A stretch of DNA of 64,000 nt from Gemmatimonadota bacterium (GCA_041500125.1 JBGQLP010000002.1:92322-156321), one strand, 5' to 3'; numbered from the stretch's first letter, positions 1-19,910 are shown. Program-made: numbers and translations. The notes: generated by a model from the sequence alone, not told the origin.

Positions 1-130
1 CGCGCCAGTCCGCGGCCGGGTACGGGGACTGGGTGAAGATGGCGCGCTTCTGGTGCAGATCGCCGACCGATCCGAGATTCCCCTCCGCAGCGGCTCGGTG
101 GAGTTGGCTGCAGGTTCTCCTCACCGATAA
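1..130 (+). CDS. birA: Biotin--[acetyl-CoA-carboxylase] ligase, C-terminal fragment (5' end outside window)
   Basis: Frame 2 is open from the window edge to TAA at 128-130. The translation APVRGRVRGLGEDGALLVQIADRSEIPLRSGSVELAAGSPHR resembles the BirA C-terminal domain (G.D.DGaLlv....g....SGeV.L). birA-coaX adjacency is common. Not in the ORF track because it has no start. Confidence 0.45.
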   Translation, partial: APVRGRVRGLGEDGALLVQIADRSEIPLRSGSVELAAGSPHR

Positions 131-138
131 CTTCGACC

Positions 139-1829: not shown

Positions 1830-1893
1830 CCGCCCTTGGCCCGCAAAGCGGCGCCTCGGTATACTTGACCTTCTCACCGCATTTGGAGATGGA

Positions 1894-2526
1894 ATGACCT
1901 CGACCGCGGAAGTGAAGCGCCAGTACGACGCGACCGATGTCCCGGCAATCGTCGCGGCCTCGGTCAAGCTCGGGCTGCTGGAGGCAGCACTGGTGCTGCT
2001 CTTTTCCCTGGCTTCGCGGCTCCTCGGCGGACCAATCGAGATAGTCGTCTGTGCCCTCATACTGCTGGTAGGTCTCGCGGCAGTCACGATGCTTCCGGGC
2101 CTGTGGACCAGGGCCTTCACCATCGAGGGGATCGCTGGCGCCGCCGGGATCGGCCTGGGCGCAGCCGCGGTGTTTCTTCTCATCGACGTCATCCTGCTCC
2201 AGAACATTGGAACCTACAGTCACCGGTGGCACGAGATCGGCGGTGGCAGCGACTGGTGGTACCATCCGGTCTGGTGGATGGTGGGTACCTTCCTGCCCTG
2301 GATGGGGGCCTGGATCCTGGCAAATCAGACCGCGAGAGACGGACGCCCCGCTGCCGCGCTCGGGCTGCTGACCGCGTTCGTGGCGGCCATCATCATCGCG
2401 GTGCTCGCCATTCAGCTCGGTTTCCCCGGGGCGCGCTGGACGCTGGGAACCTTTGCCGTGGCCTTCCTGCCGGGGCTGGTCGTCGCCACGATCGCTTCAT
2501 CCATCATCGGGAAGCGCCCCGCCTGA
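1894..2526 (+). CDS. Hypothetical integral membrane protein
   Basis: ATG at 1894 preceded by GGAGATGG. About 6 hydrophobic helices. No motif recognised. Confidence 0.55.
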   Translation: MTSTAEVKRQYDATDVPAIVAASVKLGLLEAALVLLFSLASRLLGGPIEIVVCALILLVGLAAVTMLPGLWTRAFTIEGIAGAAGIGLGAAAVFLLIDVILLQNIGTYSHRWHEIGGGSDWWYHPVWWMVGTFLPWMGAWILANQTARDGRPAAALGLLTAFVAAIIIAVLAIQLGFPGARWTLGTFAVAFLPGLVVATIASSIIGKRPA

Positions 2527-2530
2527 CCCC

Positions 2531-2860
2531 ATGCGCTGGGTCCGCCTGTTCTTTCGCATCTTCGGTTGGCTGCTCACGCCGTTCCTGGCCTGGGCAGCTT
2601 CATTTTTTGGAGCGGTGGCCGGAGCGCTGCTCGCCATGAAGCTGGATGATCCGGTCCGGGGCTTGGCCGTCACTGCCGTCTGCGGGGGCATTGCCGGTTT
2701 CGCGGCGCTGATCGGCTGGCTGCATTACTTGAGACGGTCACCCGAAATCCGCGAGGTCCTGGCGGTGACCGAGGACGGAACCCCGGACACGACCGACTTC
2801 GCTTCCGTGCCCGAGGTTCCTGAGGAAGTCGCTGAGCCCGAGCCATCCCAGCCGAGTTGA
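2531..2860 (+). CDS. Hypothetical small membrane protein with acidic C-terminal tail
   Basis: ATG at 2531 lies 5 nt after the upstream stop. Two predicted TM helices followed by the tail EVPEEVAEPEPSQPS. Confidence 0.45.
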   Translation: MRWVRLFFRIFGWLLTPFLAWAASFFGAVAGALLAMKLDDPVRGLAVTAVCGGIAGFAALIGWLHYLRRSPEIREVLAVTEDGTPDTTDFASVPEVPEEVAEPEPSQPS

Positions 2861-3270
2861 CGCCGCTGCGAATCCCTCACCCAAGGCAGTTCCGACTTGC
2901 GTTCGCCGCTCTGCTTCTGTCCGCCTGCCGCACGGACCAGCGGCCACGGGCCAACGGTGAGACCGGCGATGCCTCCAAGCCTTCCGACTCGCTCGTCATC
3001 TCAGCCGCCGGCGGAGTCGAGGTCTGGTTTACCCTCGCGCGGGCAGCGCAAGGTCCGGACGGCAAGACCTGCCTTGAACGCGGTCTCGAGATCCGCCGGG
3101 GTGAAACTCGGGTGCAGGTCCCGCTGCTCTACACCGGGACCCCTCCGGTTCTCCTCGACGATTCGACCATGCGAGCGCTGCTGTGGAACCACTGCCGGCC
3201 GGTTGATGCCTACCGAGTGGACCTCCGGAGCGGGCGGCCCCTCAGGGAAAATGTCAGGAGTAGACCGTGA
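2857..3270 (+). CDS. Hypothetical lipoprotein
   Basis: TTG start overlaps the upstream stop (TTGA). Lipobox-like ALLLSAC after a basic N-terminus. Confidence 0.45.
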   Translation: MTPLRIPHPRQFRLAFAALLLSACRTDQRPRANGETGDASKPSDSLVISAAGGVEVWFTLARAAQGPDGKTCLERGLEIRRGETRVQVPLLYTGTPPVLLDDSTMRALLWNHCRPVDAYRVDLRSGRPLRENVRSRP

Positions 3271-4268
3271 GGCGGGGGCTCTGGCGCGGGGTTTGGTGCT
3301 CCTGGTGTGGAATGGCCGTCGGGTTCTGGGGCCTGGGGGCCGGCGGTGCGGCAGCGCAGACGATCGACGCGCGCATGGGACGCTTCTTCAATTCGACTGG
3401 ATGGACTGCTTATCGGCTGGGGATCACCCGTCCTCTTGTCGGGATACTTGGAGCCCAGCTCCATGGGGACGTTCTGCACCGCTACGGCGGAGACCCGGGG
3501 GGCCTGGCGGGGATCGGTGCCGACCTCACCGCATTTCGCACCGGCCACGACGGTCCCTACCTCATCGCCGGATTGAGCGGGGGGCTCGGGTCGGAAAGCT
3601 CGAACGCCTTGTCCAGTCTCTGGGGCTCCTGGTCCGCGGGGTTGGGCTACGATCTCTTTCCGCTTTCCTTCATGTCGGTGGGCGCGGAAGCGCGCTGGCG
3701 CGAGCTGTCGCTCGGCAAACGGGACGGACTCGAGCTCGCAGGAGGACTGACGATTCATCTCGGCGGAGCACCGCCCTCCGCACGCCCGCTGGCCCAACGG
3801 CCTGCGTCGGTCCCACCAATCATCGGGTCGACCGAGCTCGCGCCGGTGCCGGGGGAGGTCCAGTCGCCTCCGGCGACCCTGGCCGACTCCGTTATCGCGA
3901 CCGCCACCGAGGCGATGGGCCGGCCCTATGAGTTCGGTGGGACTGGCGCCAACGGTGAGGGATTCGACTGCTCGGGCTTGATTCAGTACGCCTACGGCAA
4001 ACATGGGATCATCTTGCCCCGGCGAAGCACCGACCAGGCACGGGAAGGCGCCAAAGTAGATCGCACGCTGGCGCAACTGAGGCCGGGAGACCTGCTGACG
4101 TTCTCGAATCGGGGCGGGGCCATTACCCACGTAGGGCTCTACATGGGCAAGAGTCGGTTCATTCACAGCGCCACCCGTGGCGTGCAGGTGAGCACGCTCA
4201 CCGCTGAAGATCCCTATGGTCGGTGGTGGTACAAACGCTGGGTGGGAGTGAGGCGGCTTGTACCATAA
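3267..4268 (+). CDS. NlpC/P60 family peptidoglycan endopeptidase with N-terminal beta-rich (OMP-like) domain
   Basis: C-terminal GFDCSGLIQYAY (catalytic Cys) and ITHVGLYMG (His) are NlpC/P60 motifs. N-terminal signal-like segment ending AAQ. Residues ~40-170 have alternating Gly/aromatic beta-strand character. Confidence 0.8.
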   Translation: MRRGLWRGVWCSWCGMAVGFWGLGAGGAAAQTIDARMGRFFNSTGWTAYRLGITRPLVGILGAQLHGDVLHRYGGDPGGLAGIGADLTAFRTGHDGPYLIAGLSGGLGSESSNALSSLWGSWSAGLGYDLFPLSFMSVGAEARWRELSLGKRDGLELAGGLTIHLGGAPPSARPLAQRPASVPPIIGSTELAPVPGEVQSPPATLADSVIATATEAMGRPYEFGGTGANGEGFDCSGLIQYAYGKHGIILPRRSTDQAREGAKVDRTLAQLRPGDLLTFSNRGGAITHVGLYMGKSRFIHSATRGVQVSTLTAEDPYGRWWYKRWVGVRRLVP

Positions 4269-4314
4269 GGGGCGTAGTATGCCTTCACTCCGCCCCCTAC
4301 GGACCCTTCACCGG

Positions 4315-5394
4315 TTACTGATGAGTCGACTCCTCGTGCACGGCGCCGCCGCTGTGGTCGTGATGCATTCCCGACATGGACTCATCCCCGCCACGCACCT
4401 GGAGTGAGGCCAGGTCCCGCTGATAGGTCGGATCGGAGAGATCGATCGCCGGCCAGCGCTTCATGTCGTCGGGCACGAAGAGGCCGACCATGTGCGCCAT
4501 CGCCCCTTTGACCCGCAGCTCTCCCGTCGGGTTGTCGTATTCGCCAACTACCCGGTACCGATGCTTGGCCTTGAGCCGGAGCCCGGCACCACTCACCCCG
4601 AACAGCTTCCGGCTCACCTTTACCAGCTTCCCGTCGGGAGCCCGCTCGGCCACCACCTGGGTGATCACCTTGCCGGTCTCCGCATCTTCCAACTGCACCC
4701 GGGTGCCGTAGTCGTGCATGTGTCCGCCCACTCCGAGCAGCCGGCCACCGATGGGCAGGCTGAATTCAAAGGCTTTCACGGAATGCCCCGGCGGCACGTC
4801 GAACGTATTGGTCCCGCCCACCGTCAGGTTGACGTCCATGTAGATCGGTAGCGCGTTCACCGGCTGCGGATTCTGGTTCTTGGGGGTCCACAGCATGGTG
4901 AGCTTGAGATACACGCCCTGCAGATCCTTACCGGTGTCGTTGTGCCAGGCCACGTACATGCCGAGCTTCATCCCCGGCTTCATCGGTACGCCGATGGTCT
5001 TGGGGACGCTGATCTCGTCGTCGGTCTCCGTGCCCGCACCCATCAGCCGTTCCGCCGCGGAGTAGAGCAGCTGCCGCCGGCTGAAGTTCACCATGATGAG
5101 GTGGTGCATGACATGCCGAGGGACTGCCTTGCCCTGGGCGTCGGCGAGGTCTACCCGGAAGCCGCGAAACCAGCCCTCCACCGGCCAGGAGAAGTTCTGG
5201 ACCGGGGTGTCGTGTGACATCCCGAGATCCATCATCGCGTGGCTTTCCATCGGCGGCATGTTGGGTAAATCAAAGGGCCCGCTCGTGATGGTGAGCTCGT
5301 GCCGGGAGGAATCGACGGAGATGGTCACCACGGGCGGTTTGGGTCCCCCGATACCGGCGCTTACCAAGGCAGTTAACAAGCAGCTCCACAACAT
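4315..5394 (-). CDS. Exported protein, possible PHM/DBH-like two-copper monooxygenase fold with His/Met-rich tail
   Basis: Signal-like N-terminus. Candidate ligands HH (aa 97-98), H151, HMH (aa 225-227) and M299/M302 have spacing close to the peptidylglycine monooxygenase CuH/CuM ligands. C-terminal tail is ESMSGMHHDHSGGAVHEESTHQ. The CDS call is solid; the function is inference. Confidence 0.4.
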   Translation of the reverse strand: MLWSCLLTALVSAGIGGPKPPVVTISVDSSRHELTITSGPFDLPNMPPMESHAMMDLGMSHDTPVQNFSWPVEGWFRGFRVDLADAQGKAVPRHVMHHLIMVNFSRRQLLYSAAERLMGAGTETDDEISVPKTIGVPMKPGMKLGMYVAWHNDTGKDLQGVYLKLTMLWTPKNQNPQPVNALPIYMDVNLTVGGTNTFDVPPGHSVKAFEFSLPIGGRLLGVGGHMHDYGTRVQLEDAETGKVITQVVAERAPDGKLVKVSRKLFGVSGAGLRLKAKHRYRVVGEYDNPTGELRVKGAMAHMVGLFVPDDMKRWPAIDLSDPTYQRDLASLQVRGGDESMSGMHHDHSGGAVHEESTHQ

Positions 5395-5518
5395 GGGCCC
5401 GCTCCCGAAGTTGGAGACCAGTTTACGCCATTGCGCGGCCGATGCCTGCTACGCAGTTTTCGGTCACCGGTCGATCAAAGAATGCGTTGGGACCGCAAAA
5501 TCTTGAGACGGATACCCA

Positions 5519-6349
5519 ATGTCAAGCATCCGTGTGCCGATCCTCCTCGGAGTCGTCGCCCTCACCTGGGTCACCAGCGGAGCGGGGCAGCAGCGGTTTT
5601 TCCCCGCGGTCAGAAGCTTCGAGCTGCCTGAGGCCTCGCCCCGGGTCCACGGGTTTGTGGGCCGCCTCCTCTCCGCCCAGCGGGGCGACAGCCGCTTCGG
5701 GCAAGAGCACGAGGGCGAAGTCGTGCTCGGTGAAAACTTTCCCTTGGTGACACTGAAGGGCGGCGCCCGGCCCATCATCTTCGGTCTGGGCTCACAGGTC
5801 TACGGCCGGTTCAGTCTCACCGACCCCAAGAGCGCCCTCATCAGCAACGATTGGGTGGTCGGAGTCAACACCACTGCCGGGCTGGGACCCTGGGCGCTGA
5901 CGCTGGAGGTCTACCATGAGAGCAGTCATCTAGGCGATGAATACGGCAGCCGCTTCCAGTCGCCCCGACTGGACTGGACCCGGGAGGTTCTCGCCGGCTG
6001 GGCCAGCTATGTCGTTGGGGTCTGGCGCTTCACTGCCGGCACCAGCTACGTGTTGGATGATCAGCTCAACCTCCCTGCTCCCGCTGGCTCCCTGGCCATC
6101 GATTACCGGGGTAAGCCCCGCCGGCTGCTGGGTGGTCTGGGGCGGCCGATCGCCGGGCTCTTCACCGAAGCCGAGGCCGCTACCGCCTGGCGGATGAGCA
6201 CCTCGGCGAAGCTTGGCGTGGCCTTCGCCACTGGTGCTACCCACGACATCAGCGTCGGGCTCATCGCGCACGACGGCCTCTCCACCCAGCGACAATTCTT
6301 CCGCCAGGAAAGTCAGTACGTAGGAGTGGAGCTGCGGTTCGACCTGTAG
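5519..6349 (+). CDS. DUF1207-like exported/outer-membrane protein
   Basis: Signal peptide, then YHESSHLGDEY, which resembles the conserved HxSSHLGDE core I recall for DUF1207. Confidence 0.5.
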   Translation: MSSIRVPILLGVVALTWVTSGAGQQRFFPAVRSFELPEASPRVHGFVGRLLSAQRGDSRFGQEHEGEVVLGENFPLVTLKGGARPIIFGLGSQVYGRFSLTDPKSALISNDWVVGVNTTAGLGPWALTLEVYHESSHLGDEYGSRFQSPRLDWTREVLAGWASYVVGVWRFTAGTSYVLDDQLNLPAPAGSLAIDYRGKPRRLLGGLGRPIAGLFTEAEAATAWRMSTSAKLGVAFATGATHDISVGLIAHDGLSTQRQFFRQESQYVGVELRFDL

Positions 6350-9531: not shown

Positions 9532-9707
9532 GCCTGGGCCGAAGCGTCGCGTAATTCCCTGGCTCGGGTGGATCGCCCGCTGCAGATGGTCGCACTCTGG
9601 TGGCGGCTGTGGCCCTCCAACCACTTACGAGCGACCTCACCCGGTATGACAAATGCGGCGAGTGGCCGAATGCCTCGCACGGTCATTCCCTCAACGGGCG
9701 GAGCCGC

Positions 9708-10229
9708 ATGCCAAAGCCTTCACCTGGCCAGAAGCCCGATCCGATGTCAGGCGTGGTCGACCGCCTGCTGGCGCAGCTCCCCGGGCTGCAAGGCGAAGCC
9801 CCCATCTCTCGCGGGGCCTCGCACCAAGTAGGCTCGTCCGGCACGTCAATCCATACCGTTCCCCCTCCTATGGAGGACCTCCTCGGGCCGTGGGCTCGGC
9901 TGGTTCTAGGCCTGGCGCTTGGCACCATGATGGCCTGGTGGCCGTACCCAAGGACCTGTGGCTTTCCCCTCGCTGGATATCTGACCGCGGTCCTCACTGT
10001 CGTCCTCGGAGGCGGGTGGGCCGCAGTGTCCGCCTGGAGATACCGGGCCAGCCTGGCTCACGTGCTCTCGCTCATTCTGGTGTTCTACGGGATGATGCTG
10101 GTGGCTGCGGAGCTCCTGCCGAGAACCGGATACGCCGTCGATCAGGCAACCTGGCAATGCCAAGAGAACGATCTCGATTCGTCCTGGTCGGCCTCCCTGA
10201 ATCATCAATCCGTGCGCAGCAACAGCTGA
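9708..10229 (+). CDS. Hypothetical membrane protein
   Basis: ATG at 9708. Three or four hydrophobic helices. The 3' end overlaps the convergent regulator gene by 25 nt. The start is uncertain (the track ORF begins at 9600). Confidence 0.45.
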   Translation: MPKPSPGQKPDPMSGVVDRLLAQLPGLQGEAPISRGASHQVGSSGTSIHTVPPPMEDLLGPWARLVLGLALGTMMAWWPYPRTCGFPLAGYLTAVLTVVLGGGWAAVSAWRYRASLAHVLSLILVFYGMMLVAAELLPRTGYAVDQATWQCQENDLDSSWSASLNHQSVRSNS

Positions 10230-13200
10230 AACGGGAAGTAATCTCGTAACGATTCGAATTCCGGATCGGAGTGCACGTCTTCGTTCTCCAGGTTGTCGAA
10301 GGCAATCGGTCTACCCTCGACCCAGGCCGTCCGTAGCAACCCTACGGCCGCCGCTTTGTCACCCAAGGCAGCGGCGATGCGCGCCCGGGCATAGGTCTGC
10401 CTCCCGAATTGGTACTTTTGGGGGAGCTGTGCCAGAATCCGGTCGAATCGTCTCGCTGCAGTACTGTCTCCCAAGTGTACGGCCGTGGTACCCAGTCGTC
10501 CCAGCAAATCCGAGTTGCCCGGATGCCGTGCCAGCCCCGCGGCATACAGCCGTTGGGCATTGTCCCATCGTCCGGCGGCCGACTCGAGGTCGCCCTCCAG
10601 AAGAGCCGCGGCCAAGTTGGTGTCGCTGGGCGAGGTCATGGGTATGGCGACGAGCGGCTCCAACCACCGCGCGGCGGCGGCAGTATGCCCGTGGGCCCGC
10701 AGCTCGCGCCACACGTAGAACGCTTTCTGGCGGTCGCCGATCGCCGGCACGGGATCGTCCCGCGTGACCCGAGGGAGCTCCTGGCGGAGGGCGTCCACGT
10801 CACCCCGGGCGGCCAGCGCCAGGAGCAGATCGAGGTGAGTCCAGAAGCGGTCGGGGAACCGGCGCAAGCCCTGCCGTGCGCTCTCGGCCTCGGCCAGGTG
10901 GTCTCCTACTCGATGCAGTGCCGGGGTCTGATTGATCCAGTAGAATGGCGCCACCAGAAGCAGGCCGCGATCGGGATCGACCCGAGACAGGATGTTCAAT
11001 GCCTCCCGGGGACGGTTGACGAACAGGGCGCTGCTGGCGGCGAGGGTGTAACCCTCGACTGAGGCCGGCGTCAGGCTCATCAGGTCGCGGGCGGCCCGCA
11101 GCCGGCCCCACAGGTCTCCCCGGAGGTCGGCTTCAAGCCCGGCCAGAACCGCGCGCTCGGCCGGCTTCAGCGTATTGGCGTGCGCTTGCAGTCGACGCAC
11201 CAGCGTGTCCACCGCCGGCCAGTGGGAAAGCCGCGTTTCCACATACGCCCGCATGAGCAGCGGAGTCATGTACTGGCTATCGAGTACGCTGGCACGCCGC
11301 AGGCGTTGGAACACGTCCCCGAAATCGTCCCGGAAGAAGCTCTCCCATGCCTTGCTGACCTCGGTGTAGGCCTCATACGACGGCGGGTCTCCCAGTGCCG
11401 CGGAGAAGCCTCGACTGGTGGTGTCAACCGCCGATGCTACGGCCGCCAGGACGTGATTGCCGAGCGCGGCGATCAGGCGCGATGGCGCCGTCGCAAGTCC
11501 GCTTACCGGATCAATCGCGCGCACGATCTTTCCGGTTCCCGCATCGATCACTTGCATCAGGACCTTCAGGCTGTCGCCTTCCTCGAACAGGTCACCCGAG
11601 ACTACCGTCCCTGCGCCGGTCTCGTCGGCCAGCGCGATGGCTGGATTGCGATCCCGCAGAAACCTAGGAATGCGGTCGACAATGCGTCCGGCCAAGGATG
11701 TAGTGCGAGGATCGACCACCTCGAACTGGGTCGTGCGCATGAGGCCCTGCGCGATCCAATCGGCAGCCATCGCACCGAGACCGGCCAGCGCGCTGTCGCC
11801 GGTGTGATTGGTCAGGGGGGCGATCACGATCCGTTGCGGCACGAGCGACGGCTTACTTCGGGTGAGCAGAGTGAGGAGACTCGCCCGTCGCGACGGCGGA
11901 ATGAGCAGCATGACGGTGAAGGCAGCCAGGATCATGGCGGCAGCGGCAACCAGGGCGCGTCTGACCCAGCGGGTCGATCGCAGACGCGAGCCGGCGCGAC
12001 CTCGGTGATACGTTAGAGCCGCCTTGGCCCCGGGATGACGGCGCTGCGTTTGCCAGGCCCTGGCCGCTGATTGATGTAACTCCTCCCGTCGCTCGGGTGC
12101 CAGCCGGTCGTAGGCCACCCGACCAATGATCTCGTGGGTAAACTCGTGTAGTGCTGGTGCCTCAAGCGATCCCCGCAACATCCGCCGGCCGATAAGCTCC
12201 TCCAGCGCCACCGCGCTCGCGGCAGGACTGAGCCCGGAAACCTGGGGCACCATCTCGGCGTCGAAGCTGCGCCCCAACACGGCGGCGGCATCCAGCACTC
12301 CTCGCGCCTCGCCGCTGAGCCGGTCGAGGCGCCGGCCGACTATCTCGCGAATGGTGGCTGGAAGCGGAATGGGTTGCTCGTCGCTCGTTGCGGCCAGGTG
12401 CCACGCCCCCGATTCGGTCGGCGCGAGGACCTCTTCGTCCACCATCGCCGCCGTAAGCTCGATGGTGTAGAACGGGTTCCCGCCGCCCTGGGCGTGGAGC
12501 CTGCGCGCCAGCCGCTGTCTCTCCGAGACCGGGAGCTCCAGCATCGAGGCCAGCAGGGTTTCGACCTCGTGGGCGCTGAGTGCGTGAAGCTTCAAGCGCC
12601 GAGCGTGGAATTCGGAGGCGAGCTCGATGTAGGCGGAGGAGGGTTCTTCCTCGCCGGTCCGCGCAGTTATGAGGAGGAGAACCGCGGTGGAAAGGCGGGC
12701 CACGACGGTCCGCAGCAGCCGCTGAGTGGATTCGTCGGCGCGCGGGAGATCATCGATGAAGAGGATGACGGGCCGGTCCTCGCTCACCGCCTTGATGGTC
12801 TCGACCAGCGCCTCTTCCAGAGCGGCCTGACCGCCGCTGGGCTCGGGCAAGTGGGGGAAGCGGTCGCGCAGGGACGGCGCAACCAGACTCACCTCGCTCA
12901 GCGCTCGCGGCGATGCTCCGGCAGCGCCGGGAGCCGTCGCCAGAGTTCCCAGCAGCTCGCCTATCGGCGAAAGCCGGCCCGGCTCGATCTGCTTGAGACC
13001 TCGCGCCCGCGCGACGATCGGCGCCGAGCGGTCGCTGGCGAGCCGGTCGAGAAACTCCTCACACAAACGGGTCTTCCCGATGCCGGCCTCGCCCTCGACC
13101 AGGACCGTGGCCGGTCTACCTGCCCGTACCCGCCCCCACGCCGATAGCAGCTCGGCCATCGCCGGCCCCCGTCCGACGAGGTCCGGGGTAAACAGGGCGG

Positions 13201-13978
13201 CGGAGCTGGGAGTCGGGTGGGCGGGCGCTCTCGCGCTGTCGTGCTCGAGCAGCTTACCCAGCTGGATGAACGCAGGCGTCGGCTCCAGCTCCATGGCTTG
13301 GAGCTGGGAACGGAATCCGGCGTAGCGGGCCAGCGCCTCGCCGGCACGGCCATCCAGGTGCATCAGCTCCAGGAGGTTCCGGTAGCCGGCTTCCTCCCGC
13401 GGCAGGGCTTCCACCCACCGCTCGGCCCAGCCGACGCCTTGAGCCCACGCTCCGTGTCGCCGCGCCTGCTCGATCAGCCGCTGCAGCGCCGTCCGGAGCC
13501 CGCGGCGACAACCTTCCCGTTCGGCCTCCAGCCAGACGCGAAAGTCCTCGCCACCCATGTCATCGATGTCGGCGAGAAACTCTCCACCCCAGCGCGCCGC
13601 CGCGTCGTGCCAGCGGCCGGCGGACAGGTCGCTCTCGAAGCAGGCCACATCCAGAACTACCGCATCCGCCATCAGCCCGACCTTCTCGGGACCGGCGTCG
13701 AGGCCGTTTCCAACCGTGCGCTTGAGCTCGAGCAGGGCCTGACGCAGCGACTGACGAGCCTTCATTGCGTCCCGGTTTCCCCACAGTAACTCGGCCAGCT
13801 CGCCGCGCCCGATCATTTTCGGTGCCCGGCGGGCCAGATAGGTGAGGAGCGCCAGTTCCTTCCGCCGACTCGAGAGTCTGGCAGCCGAGTCGCCCTCGAG
13901 CCGAAGCTCGCCAAGGGTGTGGAGCACGAGCCGGGGTGCTGTCACGTAACGCCGCGGGCGCCATGGCTTTGACGCCAA
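10205..13978 (-). CDS. Membrane-spanning SARP/BTAD-type regulator with P-loop (STAND-like) ATPase, one TM helix and periplasmic TolB-like + TPR region
   Basis: 1257 aa. OmpR/PhoB-type winged helix at aa ~18-90. BTAD-like region at aa ~110-240 (FRVWLEAERE...LMHLDGRAGEALARY). Walker A GEAGIGKT at aa 296-303 and Walker B ILFIDDL at aa ~405-411. TM helix ALVAAAAMILAAFTVMLLI at aa ~675-694. Then IVIAPLTNHTGD (TolB-N-like) and C-terminal TPR-like helices ending DPEFESLRDYFPFQLLL. Confidence 0.75.
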   Translation of the reverse strand: MASKPWRPRRYVTAPRLVLHTLGELRLEGDSAARLSSRRKELALLTYLARRAPKMIGRGELAELLWGNRDAMKARQSLRQALLELKRTVGNGLDAGPEKVGLMADAVVLDVACFESDLSAGRWHDAAARWGGEFLADIDDMGGEDFRVWLEAEREGCRRGLRTALQRLIEQARRHGAWAQGVGWAERWVEALPREEAGYRNLLELMHLDGRAGEALARYAGFRSQLQAMELEPTPAFIQLGKLLEHDSARAPAHPTPSSAALFTPDLVGRGPAMAELLSAWGRVRAGRPATVLVEGEAGIGKTRLCEEFLDRLASDRSAPIVARARGLKQIEPGRLSPIGELLGTLATAPGAAGASPRALSEVSLVAPSLRDRFPHLPEPSGGQAALEEALVETIKAVSEDRPVILFIDDLPRADESTQRLLRTVVARLSTAVLLLITARTGEEEPSSAYIELASEFHARRLKLHALSAHEVETLLASMLELPVSERQRLARRLHAQGGGNPFYTIELTAAMVDEEVLAPTESGAWHLAATSDEQPIPLPATIREIVGRRLDRLSGEARGVLDAAAVLGRSFDAEMVPQVSGLSPAASAVALEELIGRRMLRGSLEAPALHEFTHEIIGRVAYDRLAPERREELHQSAARAWQTQRRHPGAKAALTYHRGRAGSRLRSTRWVRRALVAAAAMILAAFTVMLLIPPSRRASLLTLLTRSKPSLVPQRIVIAPLTNHTGDSALAGLGAMAADWIAQGLMRTTQFEVVDPRTTSLAGRIVDRIPRFLRDRNPAIALADETGAGTVVSGDLFEEGDSLKVLMQVIDAGTGKIVRAIDPVSGLATAPSRLIAALGNHVLAAVASAVDTTSRGFSAALGDPPSYEAYTEVSKAWESFFRDDFGDVFQRLRRASVLDSQYMTPLLMRAYVETRLSHWPAVDTLVRRLQAHANTLKPAERAVLAGLEADLRGDLWGRLRAARDLMSLTPASVEGYTLAASSALFVNRPREALNILSRVDPDRGLLLVAPFYWINQTPALHRVGDHLAEAESARQGLRRFPDRFWTHLDLLLALAARGDVDALRQELPRVTRDDPVPAIGDRQKAFYVWRELRAHGHTAAAARWLEPLVAIPMTSPSDTNLAAALLEGDLESAAGRWDNAQRLYAAGLARHPGNSDLLGRLGTTAVHLGDSTAARRFDRILAQLPQKYQFGRQTYARARIAAALGDKAAAVGLLRTAWVEGRPIAFDNLENEDVHSDPEFESLRDYFPFQLLLRTD

Positions 13979-14085
13979 GCTTGACGGCCGGCTGCGGGGC
14001 CGGCGCTAACCTGTCTCCACGGTTCGACGCCGCGACGACCGCGGTCGGGCGACCCGGTTCCTAATTCAGAGACGAGGCCACTGGG

Positions 14086-14358
14086 ATGACGCATGAGCCC
14101 GATGAGGAGGGCGGGGGAGCAGAGCGCTTCGAATACTTCATGGTCCGGCTGACCCGCACCGCGAGCGAGCCGGACCGTGTGGCTGGGCTGGTCGAGCGGC
14201 TGGGCTCCGGCCAGAAGCGGAGCTTCGACACCGGCGAGCAGCTGGTCCGGCTGGTGGGTGGCGGGTTCAGCCTCGATCTGAACATGCAGTCCGCAATTAG
14301 CGACCGCAATGCCGTTGAAGGAGATATCTCGGGGCCGTCAGCTAACGATGCCGTCTAG
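14086..14358 (+). CDS. Hypothetical small cytoplasmic protein (first gene of operon)
   Basis: 90 aa with no signal peptide. GAGG lies 8 nt upstream of the ATG. The stop lies inside the SD of the next gene. Confidence 0.5.
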   Translation: MTHEPDEEGGGAERFEYFMVRLTRTASEPDRVAGLVERLGSGQKRSFDTGEQLVRLVGGGFSLDLNMQSAISDRNAVEGDISGPSANDAV

Positions 14359-14368
14359 GAGGAAGCAT

Positions 14369-15439
14369 ATGCGCTCGATTCATCTGGCAGTGATCGCGTT
14401 CGCACTGGTCCTTCCCGTGGCCGGTGCGGCCCAATCCTCTAACGCAGCGGATACCACCCAACCCGCGCCCAAGAAGGGCGGGGGACTGTTCGGCAAGAAG
14501 GGCGGCCTCTTCGGCAAGGCCAAGGCACTGACTCAGAACAAGTTGGTGCAGACCGTCGCCAAGACCGCGGCCTGCAACATGGTGCCTGGGGGACAGCTGA
14601 TCGCCGGCGCGTTGGACAAGAAGTCGGCGGCTAAGACAGGGAAAGACGCTGCAGTGGGAGCGGCCGCGGGAGCCGCGCTGGGTGCTGCCGCCGGCAAAGG
14701 CAACCCGTGCGGCATGGGGATGATGGGGAATCTCGGAGCCGCTGGGATGAACCAAAGTGTACCGGGCGCGGGGATTCCGGGAATGCCGACCACGGGTATG
14801 CCCGGCATGGCCATCTCGGCCGACCAGATGAAGCAGATGGCAGAGCAGTATCAGAAGATGGGGATGAATCCGGCGCAGATCAAAGCGATGCAACAGCAGA
14901 TGCAGGCTGCGAATCCTGGCGGCACCGGGGCCGGGATTTCAGCTGAGCAGATGAAGCAGATGCAGGCACAGTATCAGGCGATGGGGATGGACCCGGCACA
15001 GATCAAGGCCATGCAACGGATGATGACCAGCGCGACTCCCGGGACCGTGGAGCAACCGGCCGGGGAGACGACGCCAGCGCCAACCCAACCGGTGGCTGCC
15101 CCCACGCTCACGAAGGAGAAGGGCCGACTGGTGCTGCGCCAGCTTCCCTGGACCCCTGGTACTGAGGAGATCCAGTCGGGCGCCGAATCTGCCCTCGTGC
15201 TCGGCCTGCACAATGCCGCCGCCGAAATCATTCCGACGGCAAAGCACTACAGCGTGCAGGTAAAAGTCGAAGATCAAGGCTCCAAGGCCCGGAACCAGGA
15301 GCTCGCGCAGAAGCGCGCCGCTGTCATCGTGGCCATTCTCGTGGGAGAGGGAGTACCTCAGGATCGGCTGACGGCGGCCGGCGGTGGCTCGGACAAGGAT
15401 CCCCGAGTTGTGCTGTCTGAAAGCAAGGGAACCAAGTGA
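14369..15439 (+). CDS. Exported Met/Gln-rich repeat protein with OmpA-C-like domain
   Basis: AGGAGG then ATG at 14369. Signal peptide MRSIHLAVIAFALVLPVAGAAQS. KKGGGLFGKKGGLFGK motif. Two ~41-aa-spaced repeats. C-terminal NQELAQKRAAVIVAILVGEGVPQDRL resembles the OmpA-C/peptidoglycan-binding signature. Confidence 0.65.
   Translation: MRSIHLAVIAFALVLPVAGAAQSSNAADTTQPAPKKGGGLFGKKGGLFGKAKALTQNKLVQTVAKTAACNMVPGGQLIAGALDKKSAAKTGKDAAVGAAAGAALGAAAGKGNPCGMGMMGNLGAAGMNQSVPGAGIPGMPTTGMPGMAISADQMKQMAEQYQKMGMNPAQIKAMQQQMQAANPGGTGAGISAEQMKQMQAQYQAMGMDPAQIKAMQRMMTSATPGTVEQPAGETTPAPTQPVAAPTLTKEKGRLVLRQLPWTPGTEEIQSGAESALVLGLHNAAAEIIPTAKHYSVQVKVEDQGSKARNQELAQKRAAVIVAILVGEGVPQDRLTAAGGGSDKDPRVVLSESKGTK
14813..15043 (+). 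repeat. In-frame tandem duplication (~123 bp period) encoding Met/Gln-rich modules
   Basis: ISADQMKQMAEQYQKMGMNPAQIKAMQQQMQAANPG versus ISAEQMKQMQAQYQAMGMDPAQIKAMQRMMTSATPG. The DNA copies are clearly alignable. Confidence 0.85.
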
Positions 15440-15483
15440 TCAAGCGCGGCACTGATGCCGCTGACTCACTGCGGGAGGTACGC

Positions 15484-16938
15484 ATGTCTCACCCCAGTAT
15501 CCGAATCGGCTCGACGGCATCAGCCGCTGCACTGCTGGTCATCGGGCTCGCAGCCACACCGGAGAGGTCGCCGGCCCAGGCTCAGGCCTCGCCTCTGATC
15601 ATCACGATGCGGGCGATGCAAAACCCGCTCTCCCCATCCCAATGCACCGCCATCGAAGTGGTCGTCACCGATGCGAATGGCAGGGCACCGCTTCGTCCCG
15701 ATGGTAAGCAGGTGAGCGGGTGGGATGTGGACCTGAGCCTGGCATCGCCCGCAGTCGATGCGTTTGCCTGGGGAGATGAACGGCATCGATTCCTGTGCGC
15801 CAGGGCGCCGACGGCACCCTATGCGGTGGTGTCGGCCCACTATCCTGCCCAATCCCTCGCGCCACCCGAGCGGCTCGAGAACGTGCAGGCCGATCAGTCC
15901 ATTCAGGTCCTCATGCAGATGGCTGGAGCTCCGGCGGCAGGGTATGGCCAGCAGCAGGCAGTCGGAGCACCAAACGGATATGCTCAGCAGCCTTCCGGAA
16001 GCACGCCCGCCACCGGCTATACGCAGCAGCAGCCAACCGTACCACCGGGGCAGCCCTATATGCCGCCGGCGAATCCGGGCGCCGGGCAGCCGGGCTACTC
16101 GCAATCGGGATATCCGCAGTCCGCCCCGGCGCAGGCGGGGACCCCGCAACAACCTTCAGGCGCTCCCACCCAACAGGCGTACGCGCCTCCGACGAATCCC
16201 GGCCCCGGACCGGCTGCGGCTGGGGTTTCGGCGCCGGCCGGCCAACCGACCAGCTATGCCGGTGCTCCGGCGACGCCCATGCCGATTCCAATCGCGGCAC
16301 CAGTCGCGGCCCAGCCGGCGGAGAAGGGTGGCGGCGGATTTTTCAAGAAGCTCGGCAAGCATCTGAAGGACAAGGCGAGCGAAGTGAAGAATCAAACGGC
16401 CGAGAACCTGGCGAGCACCGCAAATCAGATGGTGGATGTCACGGCGCAGACGGGGAGCAACCTCGTCTCCGGCGCCGCGGCCCAGGCGACCAGTGTGGCC
16501 CAGTCCACGGTGGGCGGTGTCAGTAGCTCGCTGGTGCCCTCTGCGCTCCGAGCCGGTGGGAACGCCGACAACCTCAGCACGGCGGTGGCCTCGGGTGAGG
16601 CGGTGCTGCGCATGATGCGGTTCATTGGCAACACGGACGTGCTCGATGCGACCGGGCGGGACCTGGTCAAACGCCTGGCTCCGGTACTCAACGCCACGCC
16701 CGGCAACTACGTGATCCAGGCCCACGTGGATCCGCTCCCAGCCCCGGCAGAGCCGGGAGCCACTCAGGTGCTATCCGAGCACCGGGCGGCGGCGGTGAAG
16801 GCGGCGCTGATCAGCAACGGGGTCGCCGCAGGCCGTTTGGTCGCGCTCGGCTACGGCACTTCACAGCCGTTGCCGGAGGCCCCCCCGGAAGGCGGGCCGC
16901 CCAGCAGCGCACGAGTCGTGATCGCACGGACGCAGTGA
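15484..16938 (+). CDS. Exported Pro/Gln/Tyr-rich protein with OmpA-C-like domain
   Basis: GGGAGG then ATG at 15484. Signal peptide. N-terminal beta-rich domain. ~140-aa P/Q/G/Y low-complexity region. EKGGGGFFKKLGK motif. C-terminal LSEHRAAAVKAALISNGVAAGRLVALGYG is OmpA-like. Confidence 0.65.
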   Translation: MSHPSIRIGSTASAAALLVIGLAATPERSPAQAQASPLIITMRAMQNPLSPSQCTAIEVVVTDANGRAPLRPDGKQVSGWDVDLSLASPAVDAFAWGDERHRFLCARAPTAPYAVVSAHYPAQSLAPPERLENVQADQSIQVLMQMAGAPAAGYGQQQAVGAPNGYAQQPSGSTPATGYTQQQPTVPPGQPYMPPANPGAGQPGYSQSGYPQSAPAQAGTPQQPSGAPTQQAYAPPTNPGPGPAAAGVSAPAGQPTSYAGAPATPMPIPIAAPVAAQPAEKGGGGFFKKLGKHLKDKASEVKNQTAENLASTANQMVDVTAQTGSNLVSGAAAQATSVAQSTVGGVSSSLVPSALRAGGNADNLSTAVASGEAVLRMMRFIGNTDVLDATGRDLVKRLAPVLNATPGNYVIQAHVDPLPAPAEPGATQVLSEHRAAAVKAALISNGVAAGRLVALGYGTSQPLPEAPPEGGPPSSARVVIARTQ

Positions 16939-16967
16939 GCCAACCCGCACCCTACGAGGACCGTTCT

Positions 16968-18671
16968 ATGTCGGCGATCATCAGCCGGATCACAGCCACA
17001 GTCATGCTGCTCGGAGCGACGGGCGTAATCGCGCTGCCGGCGCAGACGGTGCAGGCGAATGCCACCAATGCCACCACCGTTGCCCTCAGCTGGACGCCGG
17101 TAACGGACGCGGAGCGGTACTACGTCCAGCGAGCAATCGGCGCTGCCGGCTTCAGCAACTTGAGCACACCCAAAATCACCGGCACCGGATATACCGACAC
17201 GAGCGTGCCGGCGAATATCGCTGTTCAATATCGACTCATGACCAAGCTGAAGAACGGACATCTCCGCTACAGCGCGGCGGTACAGCGGAGGACTCCAGGT
17301 TCCTCTACAGCCTCCCAAGCTGGTGGAGCAGCCTCTCCGGCCGGAGGGGCAGCCTCGCAAACCGGCGGGTCAGCCGGGGCGGCGGCTTCACCAGCAGGTG
17401 GGGCAGCTTCAACCGGTGGGGCCGCCTCAGCAGGCGGGGCCGCCTCACAGACCGGTGGCGCAGGCGCTCCGGCAGGTGGCGCAGCTTCGCAGGCAACTGG
17501 TCCAGCCTCCCAGCCAAGTGGGGCAGCCTCCCAGGCAGGTGGGGTAGCCTCGCAAGCCGGTGGTGCAGCCCCCCAAGCCGGCAGCGCAGCACCCCAGGCC
17601 AGCGCCACACTCTTGCCGGGACAGCCGATCGCCAACGTGACGATGGCGCCGCGGGACCCGCACCAGTTTGTTGCTGCTCCCTCCGCAGCTCCCGCACCCG
17701 CAGCCGCCCCAGCACCGGCACCCGCTCCTCCACCCAGCCCGGCACCCGTGGTCACCAGCGGCCGTTATCGGATCGTGGCGAATGGGTTCAGCGTGGTCCA
17801 GCAGGCGCACAGCCATCATGACGACGTGTACGGCGGGTTCATCATGCTGCACTTCAACCGTCAGACTGGTGAACTTCTGGACCGCGATGCTCGGCACACC
17901 AAGGTCTTGGGCGACATCAATGGCCGGGTTTTCGGCGAGACGGATGGTGGTGACTTCAACCGACTCCGCGCCGGCACTGCCAACGCAAGCGGTGGCCTGA
18001 AAAATGGAGACAGCTATCCGGACGCCGGCCATGCCCGGTTCCGCGGTCAGGACGGGGCGCCACCCAATCGCGTGACCTTCCCGTTCGAGATCTGGACCGG
18101 AGACCTCACCAACGCCAGTGACGCGGTCGTCATTCTGCCAAGCTTGTGGTCGAGGGACGGGAAGCTTTCAGGGTTCGACCAATGGCAGAGTTCAGAGCTC
18201 AGCGCGGCGTCCCAGATCTGGTATGACCAGGCCGTGCAGCAGGCTTTGCATCAAACCACCCTGGGTGTGGTTGCCCCTCCCGGGGCGGTCACACCCAACG
18301 GCAATCAGATGTTCGCCCAACTCGCCAACCTGGTCGGGGCAACCATTCTGGGCGGCTTGGGACAACCCTGGGCGCTCGCGTTCGCGTTCGATCCGTCAGC
18401 TCATGATGTCCCGATCGGATTTGATCCCTACGCGAAAGCACTGCCTCGGCGAGCCATCGTGCTGACCCGGGAGATGATCGAGCAGGCACTCAATAGTCCG
18501 CCGGCGCCGCTCAGCCCAACCATGCTGGTGCCGAACTACCCCGCGTGGGTACTGGGCTATCTCACTGTTCCCGTCGGGGTGATTCCCGTGCTCCTGTTCG
18601 ACCACGTGCCGCCGCCGGGCGAGCCGCTGCGCACGTCCTACGTGATGTACTTGCAGGTAGAGCGGTTGTAA
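16968..18671 (+). CDS. Exported FN3-domain protein with GGAAS(Q) repeat array, Pro/Ala linker and unknown ~300-aa C-terminal domain
   Basis: GAGGA then ATG at 16968. Signal peptide ending AQTVQA. FN3-like VALSWTPVTDAERYYVQRA...YTDTSV...YRL. The C-terminal domain is not recognised. Confidence 0.6.
   Translation: MSAIISRITATVMLLGATGVIALPAQTVQANATNATTVALSWTPVTDAERYYVQRAIGAAGFSNLSTPKITGTGYTDTSVPANIAVQYRLMTKLKNGHLRYSAAVQRRTPGSSTASQAGGAASPAGGAASQTGGSAGAAASPAGGAASTGGAASAGGAASQTGGAGAPAGGAASQATGPASQPSGAASQAGGVASQAGGAAPQAGSAAPQASATLLPGQPIANVTMAPRDPHQFVAAPSAAPAPAAAPAPAPAPPPSPAPVVTSGRYRIVANGFSVVQQAHSHHDDVYGGFIMLHFNRQTGELLDRDARHTKVLGDINGRVFGETDGGDFNRLRAGTANASGGLKNGDSYPDAGHARFRGQDGAPPNRVTFPFEIWTGDLTNASDAVVILPSLWSRDGKLSGFDQWQSSELSAASQIWYDQAVQQALHQTTLGVVAPPGAVTPNGNQMFAQLANLVGATILGGLGQPWALAFAFDPSAHDVPIGFDPYAKALPRRAIVLTREMIEQALNSPPAPLSPTMLVPNYPAWVLGYLTVPVGVIPVLLFDHVPPPGEPLRTSYVMYLQVERL
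17307..17600 (+). repeat. Degenerate 21-24 bp in-frame tandem repeat array encoding (S/P/T)(Q)xGGAAS units
   Basis: About 13 units such as ASQAGGA, ASPAGGA, ASQTGGS and ASTGGA. The same region produces mirror-image Ala/Gly/Pro ORFs on the minus strand (17267..17755). Confidence 0.85.
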
Positions 18672-18707
18672 GTCATTCCAGCCAGCACTCAGGCCCGAGG
18701 AGTTTCT

Positions 18708-19910
18708 ATGCGGATGCACATGGTAGTACGTCTCTCCACGACCGCGCTGGCGAGCGTTGCGCTCGCCGGACTGGTCTCGGCGCAGGTGCCCACCAAGACC
18801 AGCGAGCCTCGACTGGCGGTGCCTCGTTCCGATCTTCCCCTGGCCCAACCCCCAGGGCAGCCCACGACGGCACCAACGAGCACTGCTGCGTCAACCGACA
18901 CGACGCCCACTCCGGGGCCAGTCACGCAAGTGACCGGTGGGGCGAGTGGGGTGACGCAGCTGGGAGGAGGAGCGGGTGCACCGACTACATCGAGCAGCTC
19001 ATATGCCGCGACCGCAGCACGAGCCTACACCGGGGCCAAGTTCGCGTTGACGGTGGGCGGGGTGGATGCAGGATGGCTCCAGACACTCGAGGGCGGTGGA
19101 CCTAGCTCAGATGTCGTAACTGAGAAGCTTGGGCCGGACAATGTCAGCCATAAACATCTCGCGGGGGTCAAGTACGACGACATCGCCTTCGATACTGGGC
19201 TGGATTCGAAGCCGATCACGGATTGGATCGCGGAGAGCTGGGACGGGAAGAACAGCCCCAAGGATGGCAGCGTGATCATAGCCGACTACAACGTGAAACC
19301 CGTGTCCGAACTCCAGTTCTACCATGCCCGCCTCGCTGAGGCCACGTTCCCCCGGCTGGATGCAGCCAGTAAGGATGCCGCTCATATTACCGTGAAGCTG
19401 TCACCCGAGTACACCCGAGCAGTGTCTGGATCGGGGAAGGTAGTAGCAGGAGCGGCCAAGGCGATTGTGTCGAAGAAATGGCTCGCTTCGACCTTCCGCT
19501 TCGAGATGGCCGGCCTCGACGGAAGCAAGGTCAACGTCATTGAATCATTTACCGTTTCCCAGAAATTCGCGGACACCCCGGTGGGCGAGCTGCGCGACTA
19601 CCAGAAGGAGCCGGCGAGCCTCGAGTTTCCCAACCTGAAGGTGACGCTGCCCGAGGGGTACGCCCAGAGCTGGTACGGCTGGCTCGACGACTTCGTGGTC
19701 AAGGGGAACAACGGACAGGACAAGGAGCGGGACGGCTCTATCATCTACCTCAGTGCCGACCTTAAGACCGAATTGGCGCGCGTCAACCTCTTCGGCTGCG
19801 GGATCTTTGGATTGAATCCCGTGAAGACGCAAGCCGCGTCTGAAACGATCCGGCGAGTGACTGCCGACTTGTACTGCGAGCGGATGCAGCTGCAAGTCCC
19901 AAAGTCATGA
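18708..19910 (+). CDS. Exported protein with two tandem phage/eCIS tail-tube-like (T4 gp19 / Pvc1 / Afp1-type) domains
   Basis: GAGGAG then ATG at 18708. Signal peptide ...LAGLVSA/QV. T/P/S-rich linker to aa ~105. Domain 1 reads KFALTVGGVDAGW...HLAGVKYDDIAFDTG...ITDWIAESW...KDGSVIIADYN...FPRLDAASKDAAHITVKL, which follows the tube-family pattern I recall from Pvc1 (YRFIVSVGD...KMPGQ..TNITLRKG..LFDWINS..KKDITISL..FDATSNDIAVQEITL). Domain 2 (aa ~262-395) repeats the pattern more loosely. Confidence 0.6.
   Translation: MRMHMVVRLSTTALASVALAGLVSAQVPTKTSEPRLAVPRSDLPLAQPPGQPTTAPTSTAASTDTTPTPGPVTQVTGGASGVTQLGGGAGAPTTSSSSYAATAARAYTGAKFALTVGGVDAGWLQTLEGGGPSSDVVTEKLGPDNVSHKHLAGVKYDDIAFDTGLDSKPITDWIAESWDGKNSPKDGSVIIADYNVKPVSELQFYHARLAEATFPRLDAASKDAAHITVKLSPEYTRAVSGSGKVVAGAAKAIVSKKWLASTFRFEMAGLDGSKVNVIESFTVSQKFADTPVGELRDYQKEPASLEFPNLKVTLPEGYAQSWYGWLDDFVVKGNNGQDKERDGSIIYLSADLKTELARVNLFGCGIFGLNPVKTQAASETIRRVTADLYCERMQLQVPKS

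Follow-up and report, generated by a model that had tools for sequence, protein, structure and literature searches.

Tail-tube and Hcp proteins are textbook building blocks that polymerise in the cytoplasm, within phage tails, tailocins, extracellular contractile injection systems (eCIS) and type VI secretion systems (T6SS). Some tube proteins carry two tube domains in a single chain; one of these, pb6 of phage T5, forms trimeric pseudo-hexameric rings (PMC5717097). Among regulators, the AfsR-type 'large SARP' proteins have a described domain order, and SARP-dependent promoters carry direct repeats spaced by one helical turn (~11 bp), the 3' one lying 8 bp from the -10 element (PMC10936776). 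Here, we analyse a stretch of 64,000 nt (hereafter the window) from a Gemmatimonadota bacterium, a soil organism of the order Gemmatimonadales (GCA_041500125.1 JBGQLP010000002.1:92322-156321), in which a block at 10205-19910 pairs a divergent AfsR-like regulator with a putative five-gene operon ending in a tandem tail-tube gene. The tube fold appears here with classical export signals, among proteins of peptidoglycan-binding type and under a sensor-regulator, a setting in which tube proteins are not known to be employed.

Comparison of the window with related loci firmly supports a block that is lineage-specific, dispensable and apparently controlled through a SARP-type promoter box, with every large product predicted to be exported. 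We explain it as an accessory, SARP-controlled envelope operon specific to Gemmatimonadales, with tethered tube-fold rings, a reading to which we assign a probability of roughly 45%. Its parts differ in standing: a regulated exported module is highly probable, whereas a ring assembly tethered to the wall is doubtful. The first-pass annotation of this DNA had proposed a regulated module that builds or decorates an envelope-associated structure; co-conservation, the promoter box and the export signals bear out the module, but the building or decorating of a structure stays a proposal. Relatives were gathered by protein searches with genes 5 and 4, contig look-ups, a scan of one genome per species and a tblastn matrix, and the loci cited below carry the numbers of this survey (L001 onwards).

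A co-conserved block with a SARP-type promoter box

The six open reading frames (ORFs) that the first-pass annotation had delimited are all present in the ORF map and translations, with the spacings it gave, and are laid out as follows.

10205-13978, minus strand: regulator, 1257 codons if read as the longest ORF
14086-14358, plus strand: gene 1, first in the operon, a 90-aa protein
14369-15439, plus strand: gene 2, OmpA-1, predicted exported; signal peptide, KGGGxFGK/amphipathic segment, Gly/Met/Gln-rich repeats and OmpA-C domain (15155-15397)
15484-16938, plus strand: gene 3, OmpA-2, predicted exported; signal peptide, ~115-aa N-terminal domain, Q/Y/G/P-rich linker, KGGGGFFKK segment and OmpA-C domain (16621-16872)
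16968-18671, plus strand: gene 4, FN3 protein, predicted exported; signal peptide, FN3 domain (17046-17312), GGAASQ-repeat linker and 307-aa orphan domain (17748-18668)
18708-19910, plus strand: gene 5, tandem tail-tube protein, predicted exported; signal peptide (18708-18782), P/T/S-rich linker with conserved motifs (18783-19007) and two tube domains (19008-19907)

The five plus-strand genes are separated by gaps of 10, 44, 29 and 36 nt, and each start is preceded by a purine-rich Shine-Dalgarno motif of its own (GAGG, AGGAGG, GGGAGG, GAGGA, GAGGAG), as had been claimed. No terminator-like site was found on the plus strand within the five-gene run, and we infer that the genes are co-transcribed. 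The housekeeping flanks are likewise those annotated: groES, groEL and a rhodanese gene upstream, and a metallo-beta-lactamase-fold (MBL) gene, two nucleotidyl-transferase genes (NTP-transferase/ManC) and a Roadblock gene downstream. The codon-position GC3 of the block (0.71-0.79) lies slightly below that of its neighbours and is not foreign, and base composition resembles the rest of the window. Export signals were read by eye from the translations as a hydrophobic core behind a basic N-terminus and ahead of an A-Q cleavage-type site. On this reading, predicted Sec signal peptides followed by long low-complexity stretches occur on all four large products (genes 2-5), in line with the earlier count of four out of five, while the 90-aa product of gene 1 has none. 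Given these signals, it is reasonable to place the four large products in the envelope.

The full ordered set of regulator, 90-aa protein, OmpA-1, OmpA-2, FN3 protein and tube protein was recovered in L001, L002, L007, L009, L010 and L089, with protein identities of 40-60% across the ordered loci. In all, conserved gene order extends to at least 9 Gemmatimonadales loci. Partial copies in L008, L011, L014 and L086 lie on short contigs or are missing the FN3 gene, which is absent from L008 and L086. The regulator is divergent beside the operon in all six ordered loci; in L008 it is found at the distal end of the cluster. In the window, L002 and L089 the block sits between groEL and the MBL gene; in L001 it occupies another site, near gyrB/gyrA. 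Homologues of the 90-aa protein and of the C-terminal domain of gene 4 were found in the Gemmatimonadales group only. The co-occurrence of regulator, OmpA, FN3 and tube genes, which the first-pass annotation had proposed to check, is thus seen as an ordered block in Gemmatimonadales but not elsewhere, where the tube family is mostly found alone.

One close relative, L090 (GroEL 96% and ManC 92% identical), has lost the block through a deletion of ~8.5 kb: L090 8681-9847, set against the window at ~10367-18912, has what is left of the regulator, its final 54 codons, fused to the tube gene from codon 69 onwards. L090 is in effect a natural knock-out for the entire module, which is dispensable, or accessory, because a close relative lost it in this way. 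The same evidence bears on whether the genes form a functional unit at all, or are unrelated exported genes that remain adjacent through shared ancestry, beside an unrelated regulator. That the tube family mostly stands alone elsewhere, and that two relatives lack the FN3 gene, would suit such a view; yet gene order is kept at 40-60% protein identity and in at least two chromosomal contexts, the gaps are tight, a single promoter box is conserved and the deletion in L090 takes out the block as a whole, so that we regard a chance assortment as highly improbable.

The promoter box emerged from an alignment of the divergent intergenic region across seven loci, in which the invariant core reads TTGACG-N6-TTGACGG-N4-(C/T)TGCG, then 8 nt, then TAAnnT. 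Its elements in the window, and those of the regulator, are the following.

13969-13998, plus strand: candidate SARP-type box, with direct heptads TTGACGC (13969-13975), TTGACGG (13981-13987) and CTGCGGG (13992-13998)
14007-14012, plus strand: -10-like hexamer TAACCT, 8 nt past the 3' heptad (TAAGAT or TAAAAT in relatives)
13709-13870, minus strand: OmpR/PhoB-type winged-helix DNA-binding domain, residues 37-90 (PF00486, E 1.2e-4, 22.6 bits, under the 26.2 cut-off)
13262-13612, minus strand: BTAD, residues 123-239 (PF03704, E 1.5e-9, above cut-off)
12674-13180, minus strand: STAND/NOD-type P-loop ATPase, residues 267-435 (PF13191 AAA_16, E 3.3e-20)
11900-11956, minus strand: single predicted transmembrane helix, residues 675-693 (best 19-residue Kyte-Doolittle window, 2.69; Arg-flanked)
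10409-10609, minus strand: TPR repeats, residues 1124-1190 (TPR_16, TPR_19, TPR_17, TPR_14; E 1e-4 to 6e-3, all below gathering score)

Heptad spacings in the window are 12 and 11 nt. Even with two mismatches allowed, the pattern matches the window only once (0.02 expected), and it has exactly one match in each of L002, L007, L009, L010 and L089. This geometry fits the published rule for SARP promoters (PMC10936776), and the box would tie the AfsR-like membrane-spanning regulator to the operon, with the regulator presumably binding there and activating transcription.

The regulator has the Pfam architecture Trans_reg_C + BTAD + AAA_16 + TPR, in which the sub-threshold winged helix is credible given the adjacent BTAD in the expected order. 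With a single predicted transmembrane helix at residues 675-693, the C-terminal ~560 residues, including the TPRs, are predicted to lie outside the cytoplasm; a sequence search of solved structures with this outer half returned nothing useful. The true start is probably GTG 13945 (residue 12) and not TTG 13978, since homology in relatives begins near there (mostly at residues 7-8, and at residue 2 in the closest, L089) and TTG 13978 falls inside the promoter repeats. The intergenic region would therefore measure ~140 bp, so that of the annotated 1257-aa divergent regulator across 107 bp, the divergent SARP/ATPase/transmembrane regulator stands and the distance likely does not. L001 carries two paralogous BTAD-AAA_16 regulators, each >1200 aa, side by side upstream of its operon (1-5529).

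Convergent with the regulator, and overlapping its 3' end by ~25 nt, is a gene for a 209-aa protein (window 9600-10229, plus strand) with three predicted transmembrane helices and no Pfam match. It is kept beside the regulator in L002, L007 and L010 (50%), and is still present (88%) in L090, where the operon is deleted.

Products of the operon and the wider tandem-tube family

Gene 5 encodes what its predicted structure firmly supports as a bona fide tandem-duplicated tail-tube protein. Its sequence matches Phage_T4_gp19 (PF06841) at 46.5 bits (cut-off 28.2), and an AlphaFold2 model of residues 101-400, built with 44 homologues, reached a predicted local distance difference test (pLDDT) of 89.7 and a predicted template-modelling score (pTM) of 0.85. 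Foldseek searches of the PDB with this model gave full-length matches to T5 pb6 (7qg9, 9iny) and to the tubes of DT57C (8hrg), P74-26 (8ed0) and SH-Ab15497 (8xan), at E 1e-9 to 8e-8, query TM-scores (TMq) of 0.53-0.64 and sequence identities of 8-10%; this is the set of tail tube proteins born by duplication and fusion of a tube domain, which are known for their trimeric rings, and T5 pb6 and the P74-26 protein are the best matches within it. Single-domain matches comprised Pvc, Afp, AlgoCIS, Anabaena and Streptomyces contractile injection system (CIS) tubes, T4 gp19 and Hcp. The model and these matches bear out the two tail-tube-like domains read by eye in the last gene. A trimeric ring is the natural expectation for the product because T5 pb6 forms trimeric pseudo-hexameric rings (PMC5717097), and by this analogy the protein would assemble into rings. 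Exported copies and signal-less copies within real injection-system loci have 34 invariant columns in common, which suggests that the assembly surfaces have been retained.

Homologues with 45-50% identity across all 300 residues occur in three settings. In Myxococcota/Polyangia eCIS loci, a ~308-aa protein without N-terminal extension is encoded between two sheath genes, in complete loci that also hold Pvc16 cap, tube, tube-initiator, VgrG-like, gp25 and baseplate-J genes. The tandem-tube gene of these loci is followed by a 127-aa gene matching the PHROG 'tail assembly chaperone' (E 6e-7; L004 3709-4092, L003 11017-11406 and others), and two tandem-tube paralogues stand in a row in the eCIS loci L038, L043, L050 and L085. 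The second setting is that of the Gemmatimonadales copies, all with a Sec signal and a P/A/T-rich linker with conserved motifs; they form one clade of two old paralogue lineages in a neighbour-joining tree that is rough and carries no support values. In the third, orphan tube genes from about ten phyla (Acidobacteriota, Verrucomicrobiota, Nitrospirota, Armatimonadota, Chloroflexota, Actinomycetota, Bacillota-like Symbiobacteriaceae, Pseudomonadota and one archaeal bin among them) stand among unrelated genes, and no sheath or other CIS gene was found within 10 kb of these copies.

Given the kinship with eCIS, the block might have decayed from a prophage tail or a contractile injection system: its tube domain is 45-50% identical to genuine eCIS components, and relatives have Hcp genes nearby. 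Searches for the other parts speak otherwise. A tblastn search with two Myxococcota sheath proteins gave no match, either in the window or at any Gemmatimonadales locus, and none of the six proteins has a Pfam sheath domain; gp25, VgrG/gpD, Pvc16 and CIS_tube initiator queries had no window match (baseplate J was not queried). Pfam results for the operon and the neighbouring genes scanned contain no gp25, baseplate J, VgrG/gpD or Pvc16 domain, and the block holds no tape-measure-like gene. With no other tail gene in the window, intact ORFs, signal peptides and linkers conserved across the clade, base composition like that of the rest of the window and stable synteny, we rejected a prophage or eCIS remnant as scarcely credible, no other component having been found, and a T6SS was discarded likewise, as no other T6SS component was found. 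That the block cannot be an injection system is firmly supported, because it has no sheath, baseplate, spike, tape measure or ATPase and because its parts cross the membrane unfolded via Sec.

Among the orphan copies, as judged by eye, ~19 carry a twin-arginine (Tat) motif, S/T-R-R-x-F-L-K, with a hydrophobic stretch, ~12 are Sec-like and ~23 have no signal; Tat/Sec-signal homologues occur in monoderm Actinobacteria too (L052, L068). The only recurrent neighbours of the exported orphans, and the only conserved neighbours of the family outside Gemmatimonadales, are methyltransferases: MethyTransf_Reg + PKMT_2nd proteins (6 loci), which we take to be of the Rickettsia OmpB lysine-methyltransferase type, and an MTS/PrmA-like methyltransferase (3 loci). 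In the former pairing, Tat-signal orphans of Verrucomicrobiota and Myxococcota are followed by a ~530-aa MethyTransf_Reg + PKMT_2nd gene (L040, L041, L072, L053, L057, L062). L049, L052, L068 and L063 belong to the same observation, in which some loci have the MTS/PrmA-like enzyme instead. This proximity suggests that exported tube proteins are methylated prior to Tat export. Methyltransferase-tube fusions also exist. One, in L088 (7159-9980), joins a SAM-methyltransferase, a tandem tube and a G/T-rich tail in 659 aa directly downstream of an encapsulin shell gene (Linocin_M18), and from this position may be an encapsulin cargo built on the tail-tube fold; a similar fusion lies in L033 (~9750-11194). 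Exported Hcp beside an exported tube protein also occurs in a Nitrospirota locus (L055).

The remaining products have fewer relatives. The 90-aa protein has no match in Pfam, NCBIfam, PADLOC or PHROG; its 90 homologues are likewise ~90 aa long throughout, and the few with a source name are Gemmatimonadales. The OmpA-C-like ends annotated for two products are confirmed by PF00691, which scores 33.8 bits in OmpA-1 and 39.7 bits in OmpA-2 (gathering cut-off 27.2). The two proteins resemble each other only in these domains (28% identity), and both have a KGGGxF(G/K)K segment with an amphipathic stretch, the best-conserved part relative to L089 (72%), where the OmpA-C domains are 47-50% identical. 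The OmpA-C segments VEDQGS...NQELAQKRAA and AHVDP...TQVLSEHRAA were inspected by eye for the Asp/Arg residues that contact diaminopimelate in this type of domain. The domains would tether the proteins to peptidoglycan. OmpA-1 has tandem Met/Gln-rich repeats (…QMKQM.EQYQKMGM.PAQIKAMQ…), and the OmpA-2 linker has GYxQQ.

In gene 4, the annotated FN3 domain was missed by the Pfam/NCBIfam scan, which gave no match for the window protein itself. It is backed by the gene-4 family profile, positions 27-116 of which pick up FN3 proteins by the thousand, by Pfam fn3 (PF00041) matches in paralogues and by a PHROG FN3-type match (E 1e-5). As the profile included FN3 columns, FN3 repeat proteins swamped the exhaustive search, in which only ~15 extra clusters covered the C-terminal domain, none with a Pfam domain. 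That domain, earlier described as an unrecognised one of ~300 aa, measures 307 aa and still has no Pfam or fold match. Its 55 homologues, the named ones Gemmatimonadales only, include a copy 94-95% identical in L089. An AlphaFold2 model is beta-rich and of moderate confidence (pLDDT 68.5, pTM 0.73), and Foldseek against PDB and viral models found nothing below E 0.09; weak C2/beta-sandwich resemblances, with no significant match, were not used. A sequence search of solved structures with the gene-4 protein gave nothing useful. Its many invariant Trp, Asp, Glu and Arg residues might, speculatively, suit a binding or catalytic site.

These features allow another reading, in which the operon encodes a secreted matrix or adhesin set: tube, FN3 and Ig-like domains would serve as beta-sandwich blocks on flexible linkers, at the surface or in a biofilm matrix, with the OmpA proteins anchoring the network to the wall. 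An FN3 domain, an N-terminal beta-rich domain and linkers rich in Q/Y/G/P or S/T/A/G are typical of surface proteins; Tat-signal members elsewhere adjoin Rickettsia-PKMT-type lysine methyltransferases, enzymes known to methylate a surface protein; and one extracellular metaproteome is rich in gp19- and Hcp-domain proteins, though its gp19 protein has no signal peptide, and the paper was for this reason set aside as a precedent. However, the block encodes no outer-membrane route, with no autotransporter and no type IX or type I secretion signal or genes, and the OmpA-C domains point to the periplasm. We consider this reading unlikely.

Variation at the 3' end and divergence between close relatives

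The 3' end of the operon varies. Relatives add a second tube paralogue and two Hcp-family genes (PF05638, above cut-off), and further additions are an FN3 + Peptidase_M19 protein, another FN3 protein whose C-terminal domain is distantly related to that of gene 4, and an acidic-repeat protein. Each of these additional products, every Hcp paralogue among them, has a signal peptide; none of the genes, Hcp included, occurs in the window. The statement in the first-pass annotation that the block contains no enzyme consequently applies to the window but not to relatives, where the operon carries the FN3 + Peptidase_M19 gene. This exported protein, with its domain of a dipeptidase family, is encoded directly after the tube gene in L089 (5716-8292), L008 (11189-13609) and L086 (4268-6745). 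In signal peptide and FN3 head it has 46-51% identity with window gene 4, suggesting that one FN3 'delivery head' is common to both and that the C-terminal domains can be swapped.

Between the window and its close relative L089, flanking genes are 82-92% and the gene-4 C-domain 95% identical, whereas the tube domains are only 51-57% identical. Rapid evolution of the tube gene (53% identity to L089) was considered and is weakened by the neighbour-joining tree, in which two old paralogue lineages are seen and different ones have been retained. Judging from the tree, the tube-gene divergence at least partly reflects this retention of different paralogues; that of the OmpA-C domains is unexplained.

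This variability is what an envelope decoy or immunity function might produce. Periplasmic tube and Hcp look-alikes would bind or cap incoming phage, tailocin or T6SS/CIS tubes, or sequester Hcp-borne effectors; the OmpA proteins would reinforce the wall or position the look-alikes there; and the sensor-regulator would induce the set upon attack. The module is accessory and naturally deleted in L090, the number of tube and Hcp paralogues varies at the 3' end, the tube and OmpA-C domains are far more diverged than their flanks between close relatives, the regulator has an extracytoplasmic sensor part, and all products would be exported to the compartment that incoming tubes cross. But PADLOC has no model for any component and gives only a weak generic ZorB/MotB OmpA-domain match (E 1.2e-3), literature searches found no precedent, the retention of different ancient paralogues accounts, at least in part, for the 53% identity between the tube genes of the window and L089, and Tat/Sec homologues occur in monoderm Actinobacteria too. 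We therefore hold both the decoy function and the roles it gives to the OmpA proteins and the regulator to be quite unlikely.

A tentative mechanism and comparison with known systems

Under the preferred reading of an accessory, SARP-controlled envelope operon, the regulator would sense an envelope or external cue, with its DNA-binding and ATPase domains cytoplasmic and its TPR-bearing C-terminal half outside the membrane. It would bind the three direct heptads, 8 bp upstream of the -10, and activate one transcript, yielding a small cytoplasmic protein and four Sec-exported ones: two OmpA-C proteins, the FN3/orphan-domain protein and the tandem tube protein. The exported tube-fold proteins may then oligomerise, most likely as trimeric pseudo-hexameric rings or short stacks, which could be held in the envelope by long disordered linkers and wall-bound partners. 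What results would be a scaffold or other structure of the envelope, made on induction, and no injection device.

Several points weigh against this picture. A close relative has deleted the block. The divergence of OmpA-C and tube domains from L089 is more easily reconciled with paralogue sorting or diversifying selection than with a rigid, conserved machine, and neither the 90-aa protein nor the ~300-aa orphan domain has an assignable role. Most family members in other phyla are isolated, without conserved partners. As the family mostly stands alone, the tube protein needs no OmpA or FN3 genes; it may work on its own, and the operon may be a looser association.

If assembly does take place outside the cytoplasm, it would be a new fate for domesticated phage parts and may define a new envelope structure or defence principle. 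More broadly, bacteria may repeatedly have moved the tube fold outside the cytoplasm, where a large, as yet undescribed family of Sec- or Tat-exported tandem tubes, joined by exported Hcp in some lineages, would self-assemble into tubes or rings, periplasmic or surface-borne, and would form in Gemmatimonadales, together with a transmembrane SARP sensor and partners that bind the wall, a new inducible envelope organelle, which we think somewhat unlikely; no better placed is the idea that such an organelle would serve as a conduit, scaffold or anti-tube decoy, of injection-system ancestry but with another mechanism. With one regulator, one promoter box and five genes, the block is a self-contained experimental system.

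Profile, structure, defence-system and literature searches assign the block to no described system, in agreement with the first-pass annotation. PHROGs gave no functional lead for it, and we found no paper on exported or Tat-signal tail-tube or Hcp proteins or on Gemmatimonadota CIS, in a search confined to open-access literature that is not proof of novelty. Its closest counterparts each match in part. Like the tubes of T5 pb6, P74-26 and DT57C, gene 5 has two tube (hexamerisation) domains in one chain; unlike in pb6-type phages, the window offers neither tape measure nor tail tip nor capsid as context, and gene 5 has a Sec signal and a 75-residue linker, such that its product must, if the signal peptide is read correctly, fold and assemble outside the cytoplasm. 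The eCIS tubes (Afp1/5, Pvc1/5, AlgoCIS, Streptomyces CIS) share PF06841, with 45-50% identity to a Myxococcota eCIS component, but eCIS copies start directly at the tube domain, whereas the window copy and all clade members have a hydrophobic signal and linker. T6SS Hcp is represented by PF05638 Hcp in operon relatives, its fold being shared with the tube domains; in contrast to T6SS, the relatives' Hcp carry Sec signals, no TssB/C, VgrG or membrane-complex genes lie nearby and the window is without Hcp.

The PF00691 domains contain N/T-x2-L-[AS]-x2-R-A, as in the OmpA-C/Pal/MotB type, but unlike OmpA, Pal and MotB they come with no beta-barrel, lipobox or stator partner, and end long low-complexity exported proteins. 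AfsR of Streptomyces has the same order of wHTH-BTAD, STAND ATPase and TPR as the window regulator, and AfsR-like targets have the same promoter geometry, with direct repeats at helical-turn spacing and 8 bp between the 3' one and the -10; AfsR also adjoins a small gene, afsS, a parallel to the 90-aa gene by size and position alone. The window regulator differs from AfsR in its transmembrane helix between ATPase and TPR, its predicted extracytoplasmic sensor half, its phylum and its association with genes for envelope proteins and not antibiotic pathways. Taken one by one, the domains are known; what has no match among described systems is their combination, above all the exported tube-fold proteins.

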